From assembly GCA_012797845.1 (NCBI GenBank), contig JAAZOH010000002.1, positions 1-60,216 on the forward strand: a stretch of DNA of 60,216 nt. The letters run 5' to 3'. The DNA comes from Candidatus Beckwithbacteria bacterium. GTDB taxonomy: Bacteria > Patescibacteriota > Microgenomatia > UBA1400 > UBA1449. The notes under the pieces are model-generated. The model saw only the letters and a list, made by a program, of their open reading frames with translations. It did not search any database and was not told the DNA's origin. Below are positions 22,703-59,704 of this stretch, one piece after another (position 1 is the stretch's first letter; the number at the start of each line of letters is the position of its first letter). A program made the position numbers and the translations under genes.

Positions 22703-22776
22703 GGGGTTGTAGCTCAGTTGGTTAGAGCATCCGCCTGTCACGCGGAAGGCCGCGGGTTCGAGTCCCGTCAATCCCG
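22703..22776 (+). tRNA. tRNA-Asp(GTC)
   Basis: Acceptor GGGGTTG/CAATCCC, anticodon arm TCCGC-ctGTCac-GCGGA, GGTTCGAGTCC T-loop. CCA not encoded. Confidence 0.97.
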
Positions 22777-50488: not shown

Positions 50489-51109
50489 ATGAAACCGCAA
50501 ACCCTAATTGCTTTTGCTGCTACTTTATTATTAACCGCTTGTTCTGTTTCAGTGACTGATGCAGACCAAGTTCCCAGTCCAAGCCCAAAGGAGATACCTA
50601 TGAGTCAAGCACCAGCCATGCAAATTGATGCAGAAAAAAATTACACCGCTATTTTAAAAACTGATAAAGGCGATATTACAATTGCTTTAAATGCTAAAGC
50701 TACACCAATTACCGTCAATAATTTTGTTAGTCTTGCTAAAAAAGGTTTTTATGATGGTACAAATTTTCACCGGGTAGTTGAAGGTTTTATGATCCAAGGC
50801 GGTGATCCTAGCGGGAATGGGACTGGCGGACCAGGCTATCAATTTGATGATGAATCGTTTGAAGGTGAGTACACTCGTGGAACTGTAGCAATGGCTAATG
50901 CTGGTCCAAATACTAATGGTAGCCAATTTTTCATCATGCATCAGGATTATGATTTACCAAAAAATTATGTGATTTTTGGTAAAGTTACTGACGGTATGGA
51001 TATAGTTGACCAAATTGCCACCTCAGAAGTGACAGCTGGAGCCGGGGGAGAACTTTCTAAGCCACTTTCTCCAACTCTTGTTCAGACTGTAAAAATTGTT
51101 GAGAACTAG
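50489..51109 (+). CDS. cyclophilin-type peptidyl-prolyl isomerase, lipoprotein
   Basis: LLTAC lipobox; FYDGTNFHRVVEGFMIQGGDP; VAMAN.GPNTNGSQFFI. Confidence 0.95.
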   Translation: MKPQTLIAFAATLLLTACSVSVTDADQVPSPSPKEIPMSQAPAMQIDAEKNYTAILKTDKGDITIALNAKATPITVNNFVSLAKKGFYDGTNFHRVVEGFMIQGGDPSGNGTGGPGYQFDDESFEGEYTRGTVAMANAGPNTNGSQFFIMHQDYDLPKNYVIFGKVTDGMDIVDQIATSEVTAGAGGELSKPLSPTLVQTVKIVEN

Positions 51110-51659
51110 GCTTCTCTGGAGCAGGGATTAGAGTTGCTTGAATACCATGAAGTTCTAAAAAGGAAACAATAACTTGGCTCCAATACTTTACTAAAACGAG
51201 TTTTTGAGCTGTAGTAAATCGATCATACTTAGTTCTTTTGCTTACTATTTCTTTAAGAAATTCGTATTTGAGCTTTATATCTTTAAATTGCTCTAGAATT
51301 TTTACATCATTTATAAAATGAATTTGTTTTAGCGCCATTAAAAGACCACCTAGTGAATTTAATGTCATTCTATTGTTTGCAAGAGCATCTTCGGGTTGAG
51401 GAGATTGTTGATGCCGCCATGTTAGACGCGCTTGATGATTTCCTGCAAGATTATCTGAAATTAAACACGAACTCAGAAAAGTACATAACATATTAATTCC
51501 TGGATAGTTACTTTTACCCTGAAAACAATATCCTCTATCATGGATAACTAAACCCACTTTATCAGGATCAGCAAAATCTGAATATTCTATTTCCCCATGA
51601 TCGCTTAAATATGACTCTGGTCTATTTCCAGTATTTGCGTTTGCTATTGCCTCAAGCAT
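51057..51659 (-). CDS. hypothetical protein
   Basis: Clean 200-aa ORF; 3' end overlaps the cyclophilin 3' end. Confidence 0.6.
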   Translation of the reverse strand: MLEAIANANTGNRPESYLSDHGEIEYSDFADPDKVGLVIHDRGYCFQGKSNYPGINMLCTFLSSCLISDNLAGNHQARLTWRHQQSPQPEDALANNRMTLNSLGGLLMALKQIHFINDVKILEQFKDIKLKYEFLKEIVSKRTKYDRFTTAQKLVLVKYWSQVIVSFLELHGIQATLIPAPEKPSSQQFLQSEQELEKVA

Positions 51660-51693
51660 AAAACTTTTTCTTTTTTATAAATTTATAAAATAA

Positions 51694-52296
51694 TTATGGT
51701 TTATCTTGTTCTAGGGCCTTTTTTAAGCCTTCTAAAAACCCGCTTGAATTAGCTGAATTTTGGATAACAGTGCATCCAAAAACTTGTTCAAGTATATCTT
51801 TTACTAGTTGAGTAGTTTCTTGACACCATTCTTCCTGAGTCCTCTCTTCTCTTTTTCCTCTAAAACCCTCTCTAAAATTATTGATCCTTTCCAATAACTC
51901 TGGATATTTTTCAGAAATTTCATTTAAAAAACCTGGCTCAGTCTCCTCAATTACATTAATTCCAGCTAATAATACAGATATAGAGTTTGTCTTTATGCGA
52001 TTTTTTTGAAGATAGGTTTGTAAAGTAGGAAATGTATTTAATGTTTTAAAAAAAACTTCTCTCTTAGCTTGTGATGGAAAATCATCAGCAAAATAAGGTT
52101 TTTCTAGAAAACGAATCAGGTTTTTTTTAAACATAGTTCTAAGTGATTCAGATATCTGACTTTGCTCTTGATGATCTATTACTATGTAACCCATATCAAA
52201 AACAGTAAAAACAAGATTATGAATACTACCATCGACTTCTAAAGACCAAGGAAATTCATCAAACCTAACTGTATCAACTGTAGGAGCTTCATTCAT
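51694..52296 (-). CDS. hypothetical protein
   Basis: Clean 200-aa ORF. Confidence 0.65.
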   Translation of the reverse strand: MNEAPTVDTVRFDEFPWSLEVDGSIHNLVFTVFDMGYIVIDHQEQSQISESLRTMFKKNLIRFLEKPYFADDFPSQAKREVFFKTLNTFPTLQTYLQKNRIKTNSISVLLAGINVIEETEPGFLNEISEKYPELLERINNFREGFRGKREERTQEEWCQETTQLVKDILEQVFGCTVIQNSANSSGFLEGLKKALEQDKP

Positions 52297-53171: not shown

Positions 53172-54920
53172 CTACTTTACTGTCACACTTTTTGCCAAAT
53201 TTCTAGGTTTGTCCGGATCAGCCCCTCGTTCTAAACCCAAGTAATAGCCAAGTAATTGCCCCACCATAATATTGCCAAAAACACTCAACTCGCCTAAGTC
53301 TGGGGTTTGGATCCAAGTATCAAACTCAACTGAGTTTTTAGGGCCAACGCCAATTACTTGCCCACCCCTAGCTTTAACTTGAGCTGCTGAAGAGCAAATT
53401 TCACTGAAGTACTGATCAAAATTAGCCAAGACAAAAATCGGGGTGCCTTTTTCAATCAGACTAATAACTCCATGCTTGAGCTCACCGGCTGCAAAAGCCT
53501 CTGCATGGATGTAGCTGGTTTCTTTAATTTTTAAAGCAAATTCCAAAGCAGCTGGATAATTTAAATCTTTGCCGATCACAAAAATATGGTGGTTTTTTGC
53601 TAGTTTTTTAGCTAAGCTTTGCAATTGATTCATCTGCTTTGCCTGCAAAAATGAGCTAATTTTAGAAAAGTCAGATAGCTGAAATTTTCCGTTTAAATAC
53701 TGAGTAATTCTAACCATATGAGCTAGTTGCGAGGTAAAGGCTTTAGTTGAAACTACAGCTATCTCTGGTCCAGCAGCTACTGGAATAGTCAAATCAGCTA
53801 GACGTTGCAAAGTTGAACCTTGAGCATTAACTAAAGCAATTACTTTAGCACCCTTCTTTTTGGCGGCTTTAATTGCCAGAAGTACATCAGCAGTTTCACC
53901 ACTTTGAGAAAAAGCTATAATCACGCTTTTTTCAGTAGTAAAGTCTAAAAAAGACCGACACTCATGTGCCATATAAGCTCTACCAAAGGCACCTTGTTTG
54001 GCTAGTAAATACTCTCCTAGCAGTGCGCAATGATAAGCGGTGCCACAGCCAGTTAGCAATACTTGATCAGCTTTTTTAATTTGCTGGGCTGCGAGCTGAT
54101 AAGTTTTACCTTCAGATTTGGCAATTTTTGGCAAAATCGTAGCCTGTTCGTTCACTTCTTTGATAAAAAAATGCCGGTAGCCTTCTTTAGCAATTTTTTG
54201 GTTGCCCAGGTGATTTGCCTGCTTTTTCTTTTGGATTGGTTTTTTATCAGCCACTTTAAAGTAAACAACTTCGTTTTCAGATATAACTACAGCTTCACCA
54301 TCATCCAAGTAAACTACCTCTTTAGCTTTGCCAGCTAAGGCATTTTGATCAGAAGCCAAAAACTGCTCTTTACCATTAATTCCGAGTAGCAAGGGCGAGC
54401 CATCACGGCAGCCAATCAGCTGCTTACTTTGAGTATCAAAAACCACAATAGCATTGGAACCTTGCAGCTTGATAAAACTTTCCAAAGTAGCTGTAACAAA
54501 ATCAGGTTTATGTTTAAGCTGTTCCTCAATCAAATGAGCAATGACTTCAGTATCTGATTGGGATGTGAAGTTATGACCTTGTTTTTCCAACCCTGCTTTC
54601 AGCTGGTTGTAATTTTCAACCATGCCGTTGTGCACTACTGCAATCCGGCCCCTACAATCAAAATGCGGATGAGCATTCGTTATGGTTACCCCACCATGAG
54701 TAGCCCAACGGGTATGACCTAAAGCAATGTGACCTTGAGGATATTTAGTTTCGGCTTGACCAATTTTGCCCACATGCTTTTCATACTTTAGTTTTCCATT
54801 TTGTAAAACTGCTAAACCCCAAGAGTCATAACCCCGATATTCCAAGGCCTTAAGGCCAGTCAAAACCGTTTGGCCAGCTTGACTTTTTGAATCATTAAAA
54901 ATTGCAAATATGCCACACAT
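53172..54920 (-). CDS. glmS: glutamine--fructose-6-phosphate transaminase (isomerizing)
   Basis: MCGI N-terminal nucleophile, LEYRGYDS, GHTRWATHG, SQSGETAD, STKAFT, ELKHG, PRNLAKSVTV. Confidence 0.98.
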   Translation of the reverse strand: MCGIFAIFNDSKSQAGQTVLTGLKALEYRGYDSWGLAVLQNGKLKYEKHVGKIGQAETKYPQGHIALGHTRWATHGGVTITNAHPHFDCRGRIAVVHNGMVENYNQLKAGLEKQGHNFTSQSDTEVIAHLIEEQLKHKPDFVTATLESFIKLQGSNAIVVFDTQSKQLIGCRDGSPLLLGINGKEQFLASDQNALAGKAKEVVYLDDGEAVVISENEVVYFKVADKKPIQKKKQANHLGNQKIAKEGYRHFFIKEVNEQATILPKIAKSEGKTYQLAAQQIKKADQVLLTGCGTAYHCALLGEYLLAKQGAFGRAYMAHECRSFLDFTTEKSVIIAFSQSGETADVLLAIKAAKKKGAKVIALVNAQGSTLQRLADLTIPVAAGPEIAVVSTKAFTSQLAHMVRITQYLNGKFQLSDFSKISSFLQAKQMNQLQSLAKKLAKNHHIFVIGKDLNYPAALEFALKIKETSYIHAEAFAAGELKHGVISLIEKGTPIFVLANFDQYFSEICSSAAQVKARGGQVIGVGPKNSVEFDTWIQTPDLGELSVFGNIMVGQLLGYYLGLERGADPDKPRNLAKSVTVK

Positions 54921-55029
54921 ACCTTAAATTTCAAATTGCAAATTTCAAATATTAAAATAAATATCAAATCACAATTTGATGTATTAAAAATAATTAGATA
55001 GAAATTAGAAATTGGAACTGGAGTAAATT

Positions 55030-55215
55030 CCTGACTTTTAGTAATAACTTTGTCACAAAATTACTTTTGGATTTAATTATTACATTGTGGGCTAAGTCTG
55101 ACCCAGAAGGTTTCCGCAGATGCTAACCAGCTTATGCTAGTTGTCCGACTTCCCTCGATAAACTCGGGACCTTCTTCCTCGTCTCCCCTAGATGAACTCG
55201 GGGCCTTGCGCTCGT
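55030..55215 (-). ncRNA. glmS ribozyme (GlcN6P-activated), variant with insertions
   Basis: In the glmS 5' leader, in canonical order: A^GCGC (55212/55211), P1 CCCC/GGGG, GACGAGG, AGAAGGU, UUUAUCGAG, UCGG, GCGGA, ACCUUCU, then AGUAAU..GUGACAAAG..AUUACU. Confidence 0.85.
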
Positions 55216-55282
55216 GCTACTTTTATGCTCCTTTACCTCCTTTCGCGTTAATTACGCTACCATAGTACAATAATCTTACCAT

Positions 55283-56572
55283 ATGTTTGCACGAGCATTT
55301 TATACTACAACTCTCAAACCTTTTTTGTCCAAATTTATCACTATCGACCTAGACTATGTCATCTCTGGTTCGTTTTGGCAAATTGGTCGGCAAGTAGTCA
55401 ACAACCTAACCTCTTTAGTGGTAGCAGTGTTAATGGCCCGACAGCTGAGCCAATCAGCGTATGGTACCTACAACTATTTAATGTCGGTGTTGGGAATTGT
55501 AGTTTTAGCTTCTTTACCTGGTATGAATGCGGCTGTGACCCAAGCTTCAGCCAAAAAAGAACCCAACATTTTACTGCCTGCTTTTTGGGACAAAGTTAAA
55601 TGGAGTTTATTAGGCAGTTTAGCTACTTTAGCTTTGGCAATTTATTATTATTTCCAAAACCAGCCAGAACTAGTTTTTGGTTTGCTGGTTATGGCGCTTT
55701 TTTTCCCCATTCACTTTTCACCCCAACTCTATGAAGCTTTTTTGCACGGCAAAAAACGATTTAAAACTACTGCCATATATGAATCAATTTTTAATATTAT
55801 TTTATGCTTACTTTTTGTTATTACTCTACAAATAAGCTCTAACCCAATTATCTTTTTTGCTATTTATGTGATTACCCAATCAGTGCTCAAACTATTTTTT
55901 CTTTACAAAACATACCAGCAATTTCCAGCCAAAGATAAAACTCGGCCCAAAACTATGATTGTTTATGGTCGACATTTAAGCGTTTTAAATGCTGTTAGCA
56001 TTATTTCTTCACAAATTGATCGGATTTTGCTTTTTACTTTTTTAGGCCCGGCTCAATTAGCCATCTACTCTTTGGGTATTTTGCCGTTGGAAAAAGTCCT
56101 GCTGGTTTTTAGTAACATCACCGCCTTAGCTCTACCCAAGTTTGCCGAAAAAACCTTGGGTCAAATTAAACTCAGCTTGCCAAGGCGCATAGTAGAGCTC
56201 ATGGTGGTTGGTGCTTTTAGCGTCATAGTGTATTGGTTACTGGCTCCTCCATTTTTTAAAATATTTTTCCCAAAATACATAAGCTCAATTACCATTTCCC
56301 AGCTGTCCATGCTGGCCCTTATTTTCCGTTTGCCGGCTCTCCTACTACAGGCTTTTGGTCAGGCAAAAGTCACTCTTTTTCCTAAAAACTTTTTATATGC
56401 AACCAGCGTTATTCCGCAAATTTTCTTTATCCTGATTTTGTACGCTGCCATCTTTTATTTTGGGCTCTTGGGAGCTATTTGGGCTCGGGTTTTGATTGCA
56501 GCTATTGTACTAGTTGTCGGACTTTTCAACTGGAATTATTTGATCCGAATCCGCAGTGATAACAGTCTATGA
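55283..56572 (+). CDS. oligosaccharide flippase (Wzx/MATE-like)
   Basis: About 12 TM; LMARQLS..YG.Y, YGRHLS, DRILL..FLG..QLAIYS. Confidence 0.9.
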   Translation: MFARAFYTTTLKPFLSKFITIDLDYVISGSFWQIGRQVVNNLTSLVVAVLMARQLSQSAYGTYNYLMSVLGIVVLASLPGMNAAVTQASAKKEPNILLPAFWDKVKWSLLGSLATLALAIYYYFQNQPELVFGLLVMALFFPIHFSPQLYEAFLHGKKRFKTTAIYESIFNIILCLLFVITLQISSNPIIFFAIYVITQSVLKLFFLYKTYQQFPAKDKTRPKTMIVYGRHLSVLNAVSIISSQIDRILLFTFLGPAQLAIYSLGILPLEKVLLVFSNITALALPKFAEKTLGQIKLSLPRRIVELMVVGAFSVIVYWLLAPPFFKIFFPKYISSITISQLSMLALIFRLPALLLQAFGQAKVTLFPKNFLYATSVIPQIFFILILYAAIFYFGLLGAIWARVLIAAIVLVVGLFNWNYLIRIRSDNSL

Positions 56573-57819
56573 AAACTTTGCAAGTAGCCTATCGAATTCC
56601 TCCTGATGGTAGGGGTGGCTTAGAAAACCACACTATCCAAATTTGTAAAACCCTGGCTCAAAGCAAAAATCAAGAAGTGGTTTTATTTACCCTTAAAAAA
56701 ACAAAGCTGGGAAAATTTGCCCTGGAAAAGAAACAGTCCAAAGGAGTTTTGATCTATAGATTACTAGTGCCAATTCCACACAACCGCTTTCAGTTCTTCT
56801 TGCAGACTTTGCTTTTCAAACCAATCCTATGCATGGCTTTTATAAAAATTTTACTAGTAGAAAAACCCAAGCTAGTTCATTTTCGCCATTTACTTGGTTT
56901 GAGTGGCTTGCTTCCGGTTATAACTAAAATCTTAGGTAAAAAAACCTGTTTAGACCTGATTGATTACTGGTATTTGTGCCCGGCTATTACCTACCCCTGT
57001 TATGGACAGCTAAGCTTTTGTAGCCAATACTGTTTTTGGCAACAGGAATTAACAGCTCTAGGATTAGTTGTTCAAAACATTCCCTTTTTAAAATACTCCT
57101 ATGCTAGAGGTATGGTCATTTGGCACCAATATTATTGGCGTTTTATTATCAATCATGTTGTAGACATGGTTTTGACTAATTCTTTGCATATCCAAAAGTT
57201 CTATCGCCAACATGGTTTTACTGCTAACAAAGTTGTACCCTGTGGAATTCAACCTTTTAAAGCTTTAGCTAAAACCAATCAAAATAAGATAGTACTTGGC
57301 TTTATTGGGACAGTTTCCCAAGCTAAAGGAATTGAGATTTTGCTTAAAGCATTTGCAAAACTTAGCAATAAAAATGTCACATTAGCTATATATGGGCCTG
57401 CTACTTCCAACTATCAAACTCTGTTTCAAAGATCTAAAAAAATTAGGTATTATGGCCCTTATCAATTGCGCGATTTGCCGACAATGTTGGCTGGAATCGA
57501 TATTTTAGTGGTTCCTTCGGTTTGGGAAGAACCTTATGGTTTAGTAGTTCAAGAAGCCTTAATGAGCCAAACAGTAACGGTGGTTTCTAAGATTGGTGGC
57601 CTAACTGAGCAAATTATCGAAGGTAAAAACGGCTTTTTATTTACAGCTGGTAATTATCAAAACTTAGCTCAAAAATTGGAGCCATTAATAACTCATTTTG
57701 AAAAAATTAAAAACAGTCTTGATTACACATTAAAACGCCGTAGTCTCGAGGATGAAACCAAGGATTTGATCAAGTATTATCAAAATATTATTGGGGATTC
57801 TGAAACAAGCTCAGAATGA
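56569..57819 (+). CDS. glycosyltransferase family 4
   Basis: GGLENH, FIGTVSQAKG, VPSVWEEPYGLVVQEA. Confidence 0.92.
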   Translation: MKTLQVAYRIPPDGRGGLENHTIQICKTLAQSKNQEVVLFTLKKTKLGKFALEKKQSKGVLIYRLLVPIPHNRFQFFLQTLLFKPILCMAFIKILLVEKPKLVHFRHLLGLSGLLPVITKILGKKTCLDLIDYWYLCPAITYPCYGQLSFCSQYCFWQQELTALGLVVQNIPFLKYSYARGMVIWHQYYWRFIINHVVDMVLTNSLHIQKFYRQHGFTANKVVPCGIQPFKALAKTNQNKIVLGFIGTVSQAKGIEILLKAFAKLSNKNVTLAIYGPATSNYQTLFQRSKKIRYYGPYQLRDLPTMLAGIDILVVPSVWEEPYGLVVQEALMSQTVTVVSKIGGLTEQIIEGKNGFLFTAGNYQNLAQKLEPLITHFEKIKNSLDYTLKRRSLEDETKDLIKYYQNIIGDSETSSE

Positions 57820-58838
57820 CATTAATCATGGGACACTTGCAGCAAAAATACACCACAAATTATTTCTTACAATTTGACCAAAAGGGTCGGAAAACCAATT
57901 ATGGCGTGGTGGGTTTGGAAGATTTTTTGTTGGGTCAACCCAGACCTCAGGATCAAAGTATTTTACGCAAAATTGATTTTAAAAATAAAAAAGTTTTGGA
58001 TATCGGTTTTGGCCGAGGTGAAGTCATTAAATATGCCAAAGAGCATGAAGCTAAAAAAGTTATTGGTGTTGATTTTTCTAAACCAGCTTATGAAATTGCC
58101 CTGAATTTTCTAGACATACATCAGATCGAAGCCAAACTTTACTGCCAGGACGCGCTTAATTTTATCCAAAATACTAAGCAGCGATTTGATATTGTCATCA
58201 TGTTTGATGTAGTTGAGCATATCCCCCGCTCTGAACTAACTAGACTCCTTAAGGCTCTCAAACTAAAACTTGCCCAAAAATCAATTTTACTGATCAATAC
58301 CCCAGTATTTGCCCTTGATAATGATGTGGCAAAAGATGGGCTGAAGGCTCAAAACTTTGAAGACACCGATGAGATCGCCGCTACCAAAGATCTGCATATC
58401 AATCGTTATACCAAAACTTCTCTTAAAACCTATCTTCATAGTTTTGGCTTTTTTCCACTGTCTGGCCATATTTTTGTTTACCATTTATCAGGTCAAAATT
58501 GGTTCAACCCAATTGGTCATAACTGGCGAGTGGCTGCCAGCCAAGATTACCCAGTTAATCCCACAGTTTGGTACAAAAAAGAAGTTTATGAATATGCTTA
58601 CTCCAGAAAACAAAAACGCTTGGAAAATAAAAAACTAAGTAACAAACTTCTCAGCTTTCCTAAGTGGTTTGTCAAAGCTTGTCTTTACCGCCTTGATTAC
58701 CGGACAGCTGAGGAAAAACGGCGAGCTCAAATTCAGACACTGCCGATCCTTTATGGGCCCAAGCGTGGCCAAAAAATTAGCGGCAATGTCTTTACCGATC
58801 TTAAATTCCAGAAGCAACTTCTTGGTCTTCGAAAATAG
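57816..58838 (+). CDS. class I SAM-dependent methyltransferase
   Basis: VLDIGFGRGE, GVDFS, FDVVEHI. Confidence 0.88.
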   Translation: MTLIMGHLQQKYTTNYFLQFDQKGRKTNYGVVGLEDFLLGQPRPQDQSILRKIDFKNKKVLDIGFGRGEVIKYAKEHEAKKVIGVDFSKPAYEIALNFLDIHQIEAKLYCQDALNFIQNTKQRFDIVIMFDVVEHIPRSELTRLLKALKLKLAQKSILLINTPVFALDNDVAKDGLKAQNFEDTDEIAATKDLHINRYTKTSLKTYLHSFGFFPLSGHIFVYHLSGQNWFNPIGHNWRVAASQDYPVNPTVWYKKEVYEYAYSRKQKRLENKKLSNKLLSFPKWFVKACLYRLDYRTAEEKRRAQIQTLPILYGPKRGQKISGNVFTDLKFQKQLLGLRK

Positions 58839-59633: not shown

Positions 59634-59704
59634 GCGGGTATAGTATATCGGTATTATGCTACCTTCCCAAGGTAGAGAGACGGGTTCGACTCCCGTTACC
59701 CGCT
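59634..59704 (+). tRNA. tRNA-Gly(CCC)
   Basis: Acceptor GCGGGTA/TACCCGC, anticodon arm CTACC-ttCCCaa-GGTAG, GGTTCGACTCC T-loop. Confidence 0.97.

Follow-up and report, generated by a model that had tools for sequence, protein, structure and literature searches.

A glmS ribozyme with two additional core hairpins in the glmS leader of a probable Patescibacteria (CPR) bacterium

Does the glmS leader in the window (the whole stretch of 60,216 nucleotides of DNA that was analysed) hold an ordinary self-cleaving ribozyme, or an oddity with a new behaviour? A preliminary description of this DNA, made from the sequence alone, had proposed a structurally expanded glmS ribozyme, with two insertions in its catalytic core and possibly an altered response to its ligand. 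The analysis presented here shows that the element belongs to the glmS ribozyme family, as an ordinary representative rather than a one-off oddity. It is very probably a glmS ribozyme-riboswitch in the glmS 5' UTR of a probable Patescibacteria (CPR) bacterium, belonging to a two-hairpin subtype whose core is otherwise canonical.

The glmS covariance model of Rfam (RF00234), the check proposed in the preliminary description, matches the minus strand from 55223 to 55030 with 50.7 bits, far beyond chance (gathering score 37 bits, E 7.8e-9). The match spans model positions 1-167 of 167, and it is the sole glmS match in an Rfam scan of the whole window. Read directly from 55223 on the minus strand, the sequence is AAAGUAGCACGA, followed across the predicted cut by GCGCAAGG and onwards, and the functional RNA extends from approximately 55212 (A-1) to approximately 55033 (the end of P3.1). 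The end of the match at 55030 is separated by a spacer of 110 nt from the glmS start codon at 54920, both being on the minus strand. The 582-residue product of that reading frame matches the glutamine amidotransferase families GATase_6/7 and two SIS domains in Pfam, which is the layout of GlmS. The proposal of a glmS ribozyme upstream of glmS is thus borne out by the Rfam score, the ORF on the same strand and the GATase/SIS domains. In silico, the element combines this score with the position in the glmS leader, the core nucleotides, a double pseudoknot and the peripheral elements P3, P3.1, P4 and P4.1. A plain minimum free energy fold of the whole element was also calculated, and gave z = -1.56; this value is uninformative because the element contains pseudoknots. 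In a transcript search no RNA run containing the locus was found, the only hit being a single wastewater DNA run with 11% of the sampled words. The features of the element and its gene are collected in Table 1.

Table 1. Coordinates of the ribozyme, its structural elements and the downstream gene in the window (minus-strand features; a slash marks the predicted cut in the consensus).
Feature	Coordinates	Strand	Basis or remark
Whole glmS ribozyme	55030..55223	-	Rfam RF00234
glmS CDS, 582 aa (MCGIFAIF...), predicted regulated gene	53172..54920	-	ORF and Pfam
Predicted cleavage site, A(-1) 55212 / G1 55211	55211..55212	-	Alignment with Rfam consensus A/GCGCC
P2.2 5' strand, C2 G3 C4 A5 (55210-55207), bulged A6 (55206) and G7 (55205)	55205..55210	-	Pairs with 55115-55119
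P1 hairpin, CCCCGAG-UUCAU-CUAGGGG	55185..55203	-	Rfam alignment and fold; 5/5 pairs covary in the independent set
GACGAGG core block; CGA (55181-55179) is the P2.1 5' strand	55177..55183	-	ACGAGG invariant in relatives
P2 5' strand, AGAAGGU	55169..55175	-	Pairs with 55111-55105; 5/5 counted pairs covary in both sets
Inserted hairpin A, CCCGAG-UUUAU-CGAGGG	55152..55168	-	Hairpin at the same place, of unrelated sequence, in all 27+29 relatives
P2.1 3' strand, UCG in conserved block AGUCGGAC (AAUCGGAC in relatives)	55146..55148	-	Invariant in 56 sequences
Inserted hairpin B, stem AACUAGC/GCUGGUU (55142-55125), loop AUAA	55122..55144	-	Columns from sequence anchors, not folding
P2.2 3' strand, C52-U53-G54-C55-G56 (55119-55115), and G57 equivalent (55114)	55114..55119	-	UCUGCGG block
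P2 3' strand, ACCUUCU	55105..55111	-	Direct reading and fold
P3 hairpin, GGGU-CAGACUUA-GCCC	55089..55104	-	Rfam alignment
P4/P4.1 with UAAAU / GACAAAG internal loop and GUAA tetraloop	55041..55083	-	High Rfam posterior probability; MFE fold
28-nt imperfect direct repeat, two copies, 23/28	55146..55207	-	55207-55180 against 55173-55146

All of the core elements were found, these being the A/G cleavage site, P2.2, the bulged A6, P1, GACGAGG, P2.1, P2, P3, P3.1 and P4/P4.1. The cut had been placed between 55212 and 55211 in the preliminary description, and direct reading agrees with that position; the AGCG at this site is invariant in all relatives. Direct reading likewise confirms the 7-bp helix described between AGAAGGU and ACCUUCU, which is P2. 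The 3' domain is canonical, and aligns to Rfam model positions 86-167. A candidate P3.1, read from the sequence only, pairs the P3 loop GACUU (55098-55094) with AAGUC (55037-55033).

The core can be mapped residue by residue on the solved Thermoanaerobacter tengcongensis ribozyme. There, P2.2 consists of C2-G56, G3-C55, C4-G54, C5-G53, a bulged A6 and a 7-52 pair, P2.1 of residues 28-30 with 43-45, and the loop between P2.1 and P2.2 of residues 47-50 (PMC7125110). The equivalent pairs in the window are C55210:G55115, G55209:C55116, C55208:G55117, A55207:U55118 and G55205:C55119 for P2.2, with A55206 bulged, and C55181-G55180-A55179 with U55148-C55147-G55146 for P2.1. Single mutations at G1, C2, G3, A27, C28, G56 and G57 abolish cleavage, and serve as non-cleaving controls (PMC7125110). 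All of these positions are kept in the window, at 55211, 55210, 55209, 55182, 55181, 55115 and 55114 respectively. The element therefore resembles the Rfam type (Bacillus and T. tengcongensis) in its place in the glmS 5' UTR, its A/GCG site, P1, P2, P2.1, P2.2 and bulged A6, and also in the GACGAGG and GCGG blocks, P3/P3.1/P4/P4.1, the AAA / GACAAAG internal loop and the GNRA tetraloop. It differs from that type at two base pairs, 5-53 being A:U rather than C:G and 8-25 being G/A rather than A-U.

The first of these differences had been read as a deviation of the core, an A at +5 in AGCGCAAGG. The letter is there, at 55207, but it is not a core deviation because A55207 pairs with U55118, so that CGCA:UGCG replaces CGCC:GGCG. 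Both the 5-53 pair and its two residues are poorly conserved (PMC7125110), and A5 is one half of a compensated form of this pair. Among 64 leaders tabulated, the 5/53 state is G.U in 32, A:U in 17 (Deinococcus being one of these), G/A in 11, A/A in 2, C:G in one and U:A in one, and in the alignment of two-hairpin members described below (A1, columns 10-81) the pair covaries as G.U/A:U/U:A.

A further difference lies in two insertions, whose presence in the catalytic core was claimed in the preliminary description and is upheld by the alignment of relatives. Hairpin A is inserted in the linker that leads from the P2 5' strand to the 3' strand of P2.1; it has a CCC/GGG stem, tandem G.A/A.G pairs, a G:C pair and the loop UUUAU. 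Where the Rfam consensus has a linker of 4 nt, the window has 20 nt (the 17-nt hairpin and 3 nt). Hairpin B stands where T. tengcongensis has a short loop of approximately 4 nt between P2.1 and P2.2 (residues 47-50), and measures 23 nt; at its base are A.C and C:G pairs and a bulged A55124. In the T. tengcongensis core, activity hardly suffers from mutations in this loop, A47-U50 (PMC7125110). The order in the window is thus GAAGGU, hairpin A, AAG-UCG-GAC and the AACUAGC-AUAA-GCUGGUU hairpin, followed by AGCAUC-UGCG-GAA and ACCUUC.

It is worth adding that these boundaries are not those originally drawn. The original parse took UUUAUCGAG (55162-55154) as J2/2.1 and P2.1, preceded by a 6-nt CCCGAG insert, with a second insert of about 27 nt between UCGG and GCGGA and with +5 unpaired. 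It has some appeal, in that UUUAUCGAG agrees letter by letter with the Rfam consensus uUuAuCGAa, and its UCG (55158-55156) could in principle pair with the CGA of GACGAGG. Nevertheless it is extremely improbable. In 55 relatives the region homologous to CCCGAGUUUAUCGAGGG is a hairpin, unrelated in sequence and length; a conserved (A)AUCGGAC stands directly 5' of hairpin B; the family model described below aligns the window in the corrected way, with 52.9 bits; and A5 pairs with U55118 in a pair that covaries. Because the segment is a hairpin of unrelated sequence in relatives, UUUAUCGAG is the apex of the inserted hairpin A and not the canonical block, and the supposed CCCGAG insert is not a separate insert before it. 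The true AUCGA/AUCG block is AGUCGGA, at 55150-55144. As for the 27-nt insert, the AACUAGC-AUAA-GCUGGUU hairpin is indeed there, but the boundaries given for the insert were wrong. The alignment of related leaders, which had been put forward as a check, therefore bears out the two insertions and corrects their parsing, CCCGAGUUUAUCGAGGG being a single variable hairpin. Rfam has its own parse, with one 42-nt insertion and CCGA/UCUG paired, which was set aside in favour of the family-based one. We also considered whether the two inserted hairpins kiss: in the window the loop UUUAU of hairpin A could pair with AUAA of hairpin B (UUAU:AUAA), but the idea was rejected, since the loops of relatives are unrelated.

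We looked for relatives of this core in species-representative genomes, using two pattern scans. The pattern in scan 1 was the cleavage site, the P1 base and ACGAGG; that in scan 2 was the blocks flanking the insertions, the matches listed being part of a larger total. By the distance from ACGAGG to UC(U/A/G)GCGG, the cores found in scan 1 fall into compact, one-hairpin, two-hairpin and Anaerolineales-expanded classes. Compact cores, of 16-20 nt, occur in Deinococcus and in some CPR genomes (L001 among them), and a single additional hairpin is present in the cores of L043 (Deinococcales) and L068. The two-hairpin class in scan 1 comprises 27 distinct sequences, the window included. All 27 fold, with the pseudoknot strands held unpaired, as a P2 that encloses hairpin A, UCG and hairpin B. 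The general layout of this subtype is ACGAGG, the P2 5' strand, hairpin A, (A)AUCGGAC, hairpin B, AG(U/C)AUCUGCGGAAACC and the P2 3' strand. It was found in at least 56 distinct genomes, mostly labelled Patescibacteria/CPR, and the architecture is not exceptional. Across the subtype, hairpin A measures 14-42 nt and hairpin B 18-94 nt, pairing being conserved and sequence and length not. In two details the window departs from most relatives: the base before the P2.1 UCG is G rather than A, and the basal pair of hairpin B is A.C rather than A:U or G:C. We also note that the tandem G.A motif GAG/CGA of hairpin A is seen elsewhere: L019 and L093 have it in their own hairpin A, and L042 has it in P1.

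The two-hairpin sequences from scan 1 were aligned (A1, 95 columns, natural nucleotides only, hairpin interiors trimmed), the columns of hairpin B being set by sequence anchors, and those of hairpin A and P2 by the fold. In this alignment 98.1% of cells are paired, compared to 78.7% in shuffles. The covariation score, a statistic that like the others given here rests on related sequences, is 0.568 compared to 0.163 in shuffled alignments (0/500 reach 0.568), and is at most 0.114 when the partners are slid. A covariance model, R1, was built from A1. The window scores 52.9 bits against it (E 2.4e-11), a match that holds by construction, the window being a member of the seed. There are 29 non-seed members, 28 of them among the scan 2 matches listed and one (L180) from a further search, which score 39.5-65.3 bits with R1. 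In a model-fitted alignment (A2) of this second set, 96.7% of cells are paired, and the covariation score is 0.563 compared to 0.181. In both sets, the pairs changed on both sides number 5/5 in P2, 4/4 in hairpin A and 5/6 in hairpin B, to which the second set adds 5/5 in P1. The counts for hairpin A are biased towards pairing in both alignments, its pairs having been set by folding of each sequence (A1) or by the model (A2). Over the two sets, hairpin B is paired in 95.7-96.5% of cells, with 5/6 pairs covarying. Across the 56 relatives P2.2 is 97.9-100% paired and P2.1 (CGA:UCG) 100% paired, although P2.1 never varies, so that covariation neither supports nor opposes it.

A homologue of glmS lies downstream on the same strand, 104-363 nt away, in all 29 non-seed members. 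The fold bears the signature of purifying selection, because its helices covary over 56 genomes in which the element invariably precedes glmS. Family membership, secondary-structure anatomy, covariation and the linkage to glmS are established for the element in the window. This bears on the possibility that the leader has decayed or been repurposed, its ribozyme activity being lost, and that it is now a structured 5' UTR only, or has no role at all. Such a relic would explain the modest Rfam score of 50.7 bits, when the compact relative L001 reaches 78.9, and the fact that the Rfam cut-off recovers 8/13 of the two-hairpin members tested and misses 5/13. It is hard to reconcile with the retention of all essential core nucleotides, with both pseudoknots intact, or with helices that covary across 56 distinct genomes in an element always upstream of glmS, and we consider it very improbable.

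Low Rfam scores are in any case not peculiar to this subtype. The cut-off of the Rfam glmS model also misses both of two Anaerolineales leaders (L008, L023) and both of two Deinococcus-group leaders (L006, L043). Seven leaders (L006, L043, L077, L040, L093, L004 and L128) were not reported by Rfam at the gathering score with default filters, and have cores that are intact by R1 or by direct reading. Divergent glmS ribozymes are therefore under-detected by the Rfam model, and the two-hairpin subtype is under-annotated rather than a new kind of element.

Several known or related types resemble the window element in part. Compact Deinococcus ribozymes share its form of P2.2, AGCGCAAGG / UCUGCGG, and compact ribozymes of Deinococcus and CPR (L006, L017, L001, L047 and others) share the P1 base GGCCCC...GGGGA, but their spacing from ACGAGG to UCUGCGG is 16-20 nt, compared to 56 nt in the window. 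McCown, Roth and Breaker are reported to have described, in RNA in 2011, Deinococcus-Thermus glmS variants with extra stems in the catalytic core; those variants and the window share the principle that the core tolerates extra stems. The Deinococcales leader L043 has a hairpin at the position of hairpin B only, while the subtype in the window has two hairpins and the flanks AAUCGGAC and AG(U/C)AUCUGCGGAAACC. The Anaerolineales (Chloroflexi) leaders (L008, L023 and others) also lie upstream of glmS and have an expanded P2-P2.1 linker; in contrast to the window, they have two stem-loops 5' of AUCGAA, no hairpin in the P2.1-P2.2 loop, and mostly G/A at 5/53. Leaders of this Anaerolineales/Chloroflexi type are L008, L014, L022, L023, L025, L027, L033 and L037, and further L041, L045, L046, L049, L053, L061, L069 and L071.

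The function of the element can be proposed from that of its relatives. In Bacillus, an mRNA decay pathway reads the 5'-OH cleavage product. From the characterised glmS ribozymes we infer that the element depends on GlcN6P, that it cleaves, and what then becomes of its mRNA. A build-up of GlcN6P would lead to its binding in a preformed pocket, where it would act as a cofactor for cleavage; the cut would be expected between A55212 and G55211; and the cut glmS mRNA, carrying a 5'-OH, would be destabilised, so that less GlmS would be made and a negative feedback loop closed. In the glmS ribozyme family GlcN6P is the cofactor, and cleaved glmS mRNA is degraded (PMC5473149). Hairpins A and B are most likely peripheral structural struts which help the double pseudoknot to fold, rather than determinants of ligand or catalysis; we read them as struts because only their pairing is conserved, and not their sequence or length.

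One might ask instead whether the expanded core alters ligand specificity, or frees cleavage from GlcN6P. The insertions do flank the P2.1 3' strand, which is part of the cofactor pocket (PMC7125110), and directly before the P2.1 UCG there is a G instead of an A. The pocket and active-site residues G1, C2, P2.1 U-C-G, G56 and G57 are nonetheless unchanged, and the linkage to glmS is strict, as feedback by GlcN6P predicts. We therefore regard an altered ligand as exceedingly unlikely. The altered response suggested initially leaves no sign in the sequence, in that all cleavage-essential positions and the P2.1 UCG strand are kept. In practice, the result for the window is that its annotation is corrected, with no evidence of new chemistry or of a new ligand. 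More broadly, the element suggests that a probable CPR bacterium controls its amino-sugar synthesis by feedback through a glmS ribozyme, a control that would be common in CPR-labelled genomes. It also indicates that whole helices are tolerated in the P2-P2.1 linker and in the P2.1-P2.2 loop, a finding of use to those who engineer ribozymes or refine the Rfam model.

One feature does set the window apart from its family. The preliminary description noted that CCCGAGUU(C/U)AUC occurs twice (55202-55191 and 55168-55157). Both copies are present, and they lie within a longer 28-nt repeat, its copies being AAGGCCCCGAGUUCAUCUAGGGGAGACG (55207-55180) and AAGGUCCCGAGUUUAUCGAGGGAAGUCG (55173-55146), as a result of which P1 and its flanks resemble hairpin A and its flanks. 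The repeat is specific to the window: the best 17-nt match is 15/17, compared to at most 12/17 in 28 relatives, and 0/2000 shuffles reach 15. It may record a local hairpin duplication or conversion. Closer relatives, in which P1 and hairpin A might be seen to change together, were sought by a metagenome pattern scan (0 matches), a metagenome GlmS scan (0) and a protein word search with a variable GlmS segment (0).

Such a near-duplicate might act as a conformational switch. In a strand-swapped fold, the P1 3' arm would pair with the 5' arm of hairpin A, and the P1 5' arm with the hairpin A 3' arm; this fold would sequester GACGAGG and the P2 5' strand, and compete with the active fold. With 23/28 matches the repeat is unique among 29 family members, and nearest-neighbour energies place the swapped fold at -9.9 to -13.0 kcal/mol, compared to -12.7 kcal/mol for the two native hairpins, to which the native fold adds the gains from P2, P2.1, P2.2 and tertiary contacts. 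On the other hand such a likeness is seen in no relative and is thus not conserved within the class, and P1 forms first in transcription. Such a switch thus appears quite improbable: the alternative pairing proposed for the CCCGAGUU repeat is energetically possible but finds no comparative support. A broader speculation is that the two-hairpin core may be a glmS structural class not yet described, and that hairpin A of the window is a recent copy of P1, perhaps allowing an inactive strand-swapped fold. We consider this unlikely as a whole, although somewhat less remote than the alternatives above; if it were true, the likeness of P1 and hairpin A in the window would show core insertions arising by local hairpin duplication.

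The closest GlmS relatives of the window protein have 50-55% identity and come mostly from Patescibacteria-labelled genomes; the best include L001 (the closest, 55%), which bears this label, and L047 (a 938-kb chromosome), both with compact ribozymes. A CPR host had been thought probable, and both these relatives and the genomes holding the ribozyme subtype, which are mostly labelled Patescibacteria, agree with this; the host is probably a CPR bacterium. The nearest GlmS relatives mix core types, with compact cores in L001 and L047 and two hairpins in L180 and L040, which suggests that hairpins have been gained or lost repeatedly. The exact GlmS protein of the window was found on only 3 contigs, one of which is from the ENA assembly ERZ928041. 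A literature search found no paper joining glmS ribozymes with CPR/Patescibacteria, and a search by taxon name, Chloroflexi included, likewise found none among the 20 top-ranked papers.

The labels of the genomes with the subtype are Kaiser-, Levy-, Roizman-, Woese-, Gottesman-, Nomura-, Chisholm- and Beckwithbacteria, together with Sacchari-, Parcu- and Paceibacteria, Microgenomates, and a few Chloroflexi or Dehalococcoidia. Several TPA assemblies with the subtype are labelled Gammaproteobacteria or Pseudomonadales. More generally, CPR-type glmS ribozymes occur in many TPA_asm genomes called "uncultured Gammaproteobacteria/Pseudomonadales" (L015, L016, L034, L040, L042, L047, L057, L081, L082, L088 and others), among them the complete 938-kb chromosome OZ246401.1. 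These labels look unreliable. L028 (JAIWHF010000168.1), from a genome labelled as a Methanosarcinales archaeon, has a glmS leader with a core segment identical to that of the Anaerolineales leaders L014, L033 and L071, and is probably a mis-binned bacterial contig.

Finally, the surroundings of the element were inspected. The spacer between ribozyme and glmS (54921-55029, minus strand) is AU-rich, with repeated AUUUGAAAUUU / AAUUUCU units; no terminator-like site was found in it, and a Shine-Dalgarno-like AAGG lies 3 nt before the glmS AUG. A promoter scan gave weak consensus matches only, for example at 55331-55302 (minus strand). Divergent from glmS, at 55283-58838 on the plus strand, are genes for a Polysacc_synt flippase-like protein, a GT4 glycosyltransferase and a methyltransferase, a polysaccharide-synthesis cluster that fits with the supply of amino sugars for envelope glycans. 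On the minus strand at 51057-52296 there are two neighbouring ORFs of exactly 200 aa each, without a Pfam match, and the Rfam scan located two tRNA genes on the plus strand, at 22703-22776 and 59634-59704.
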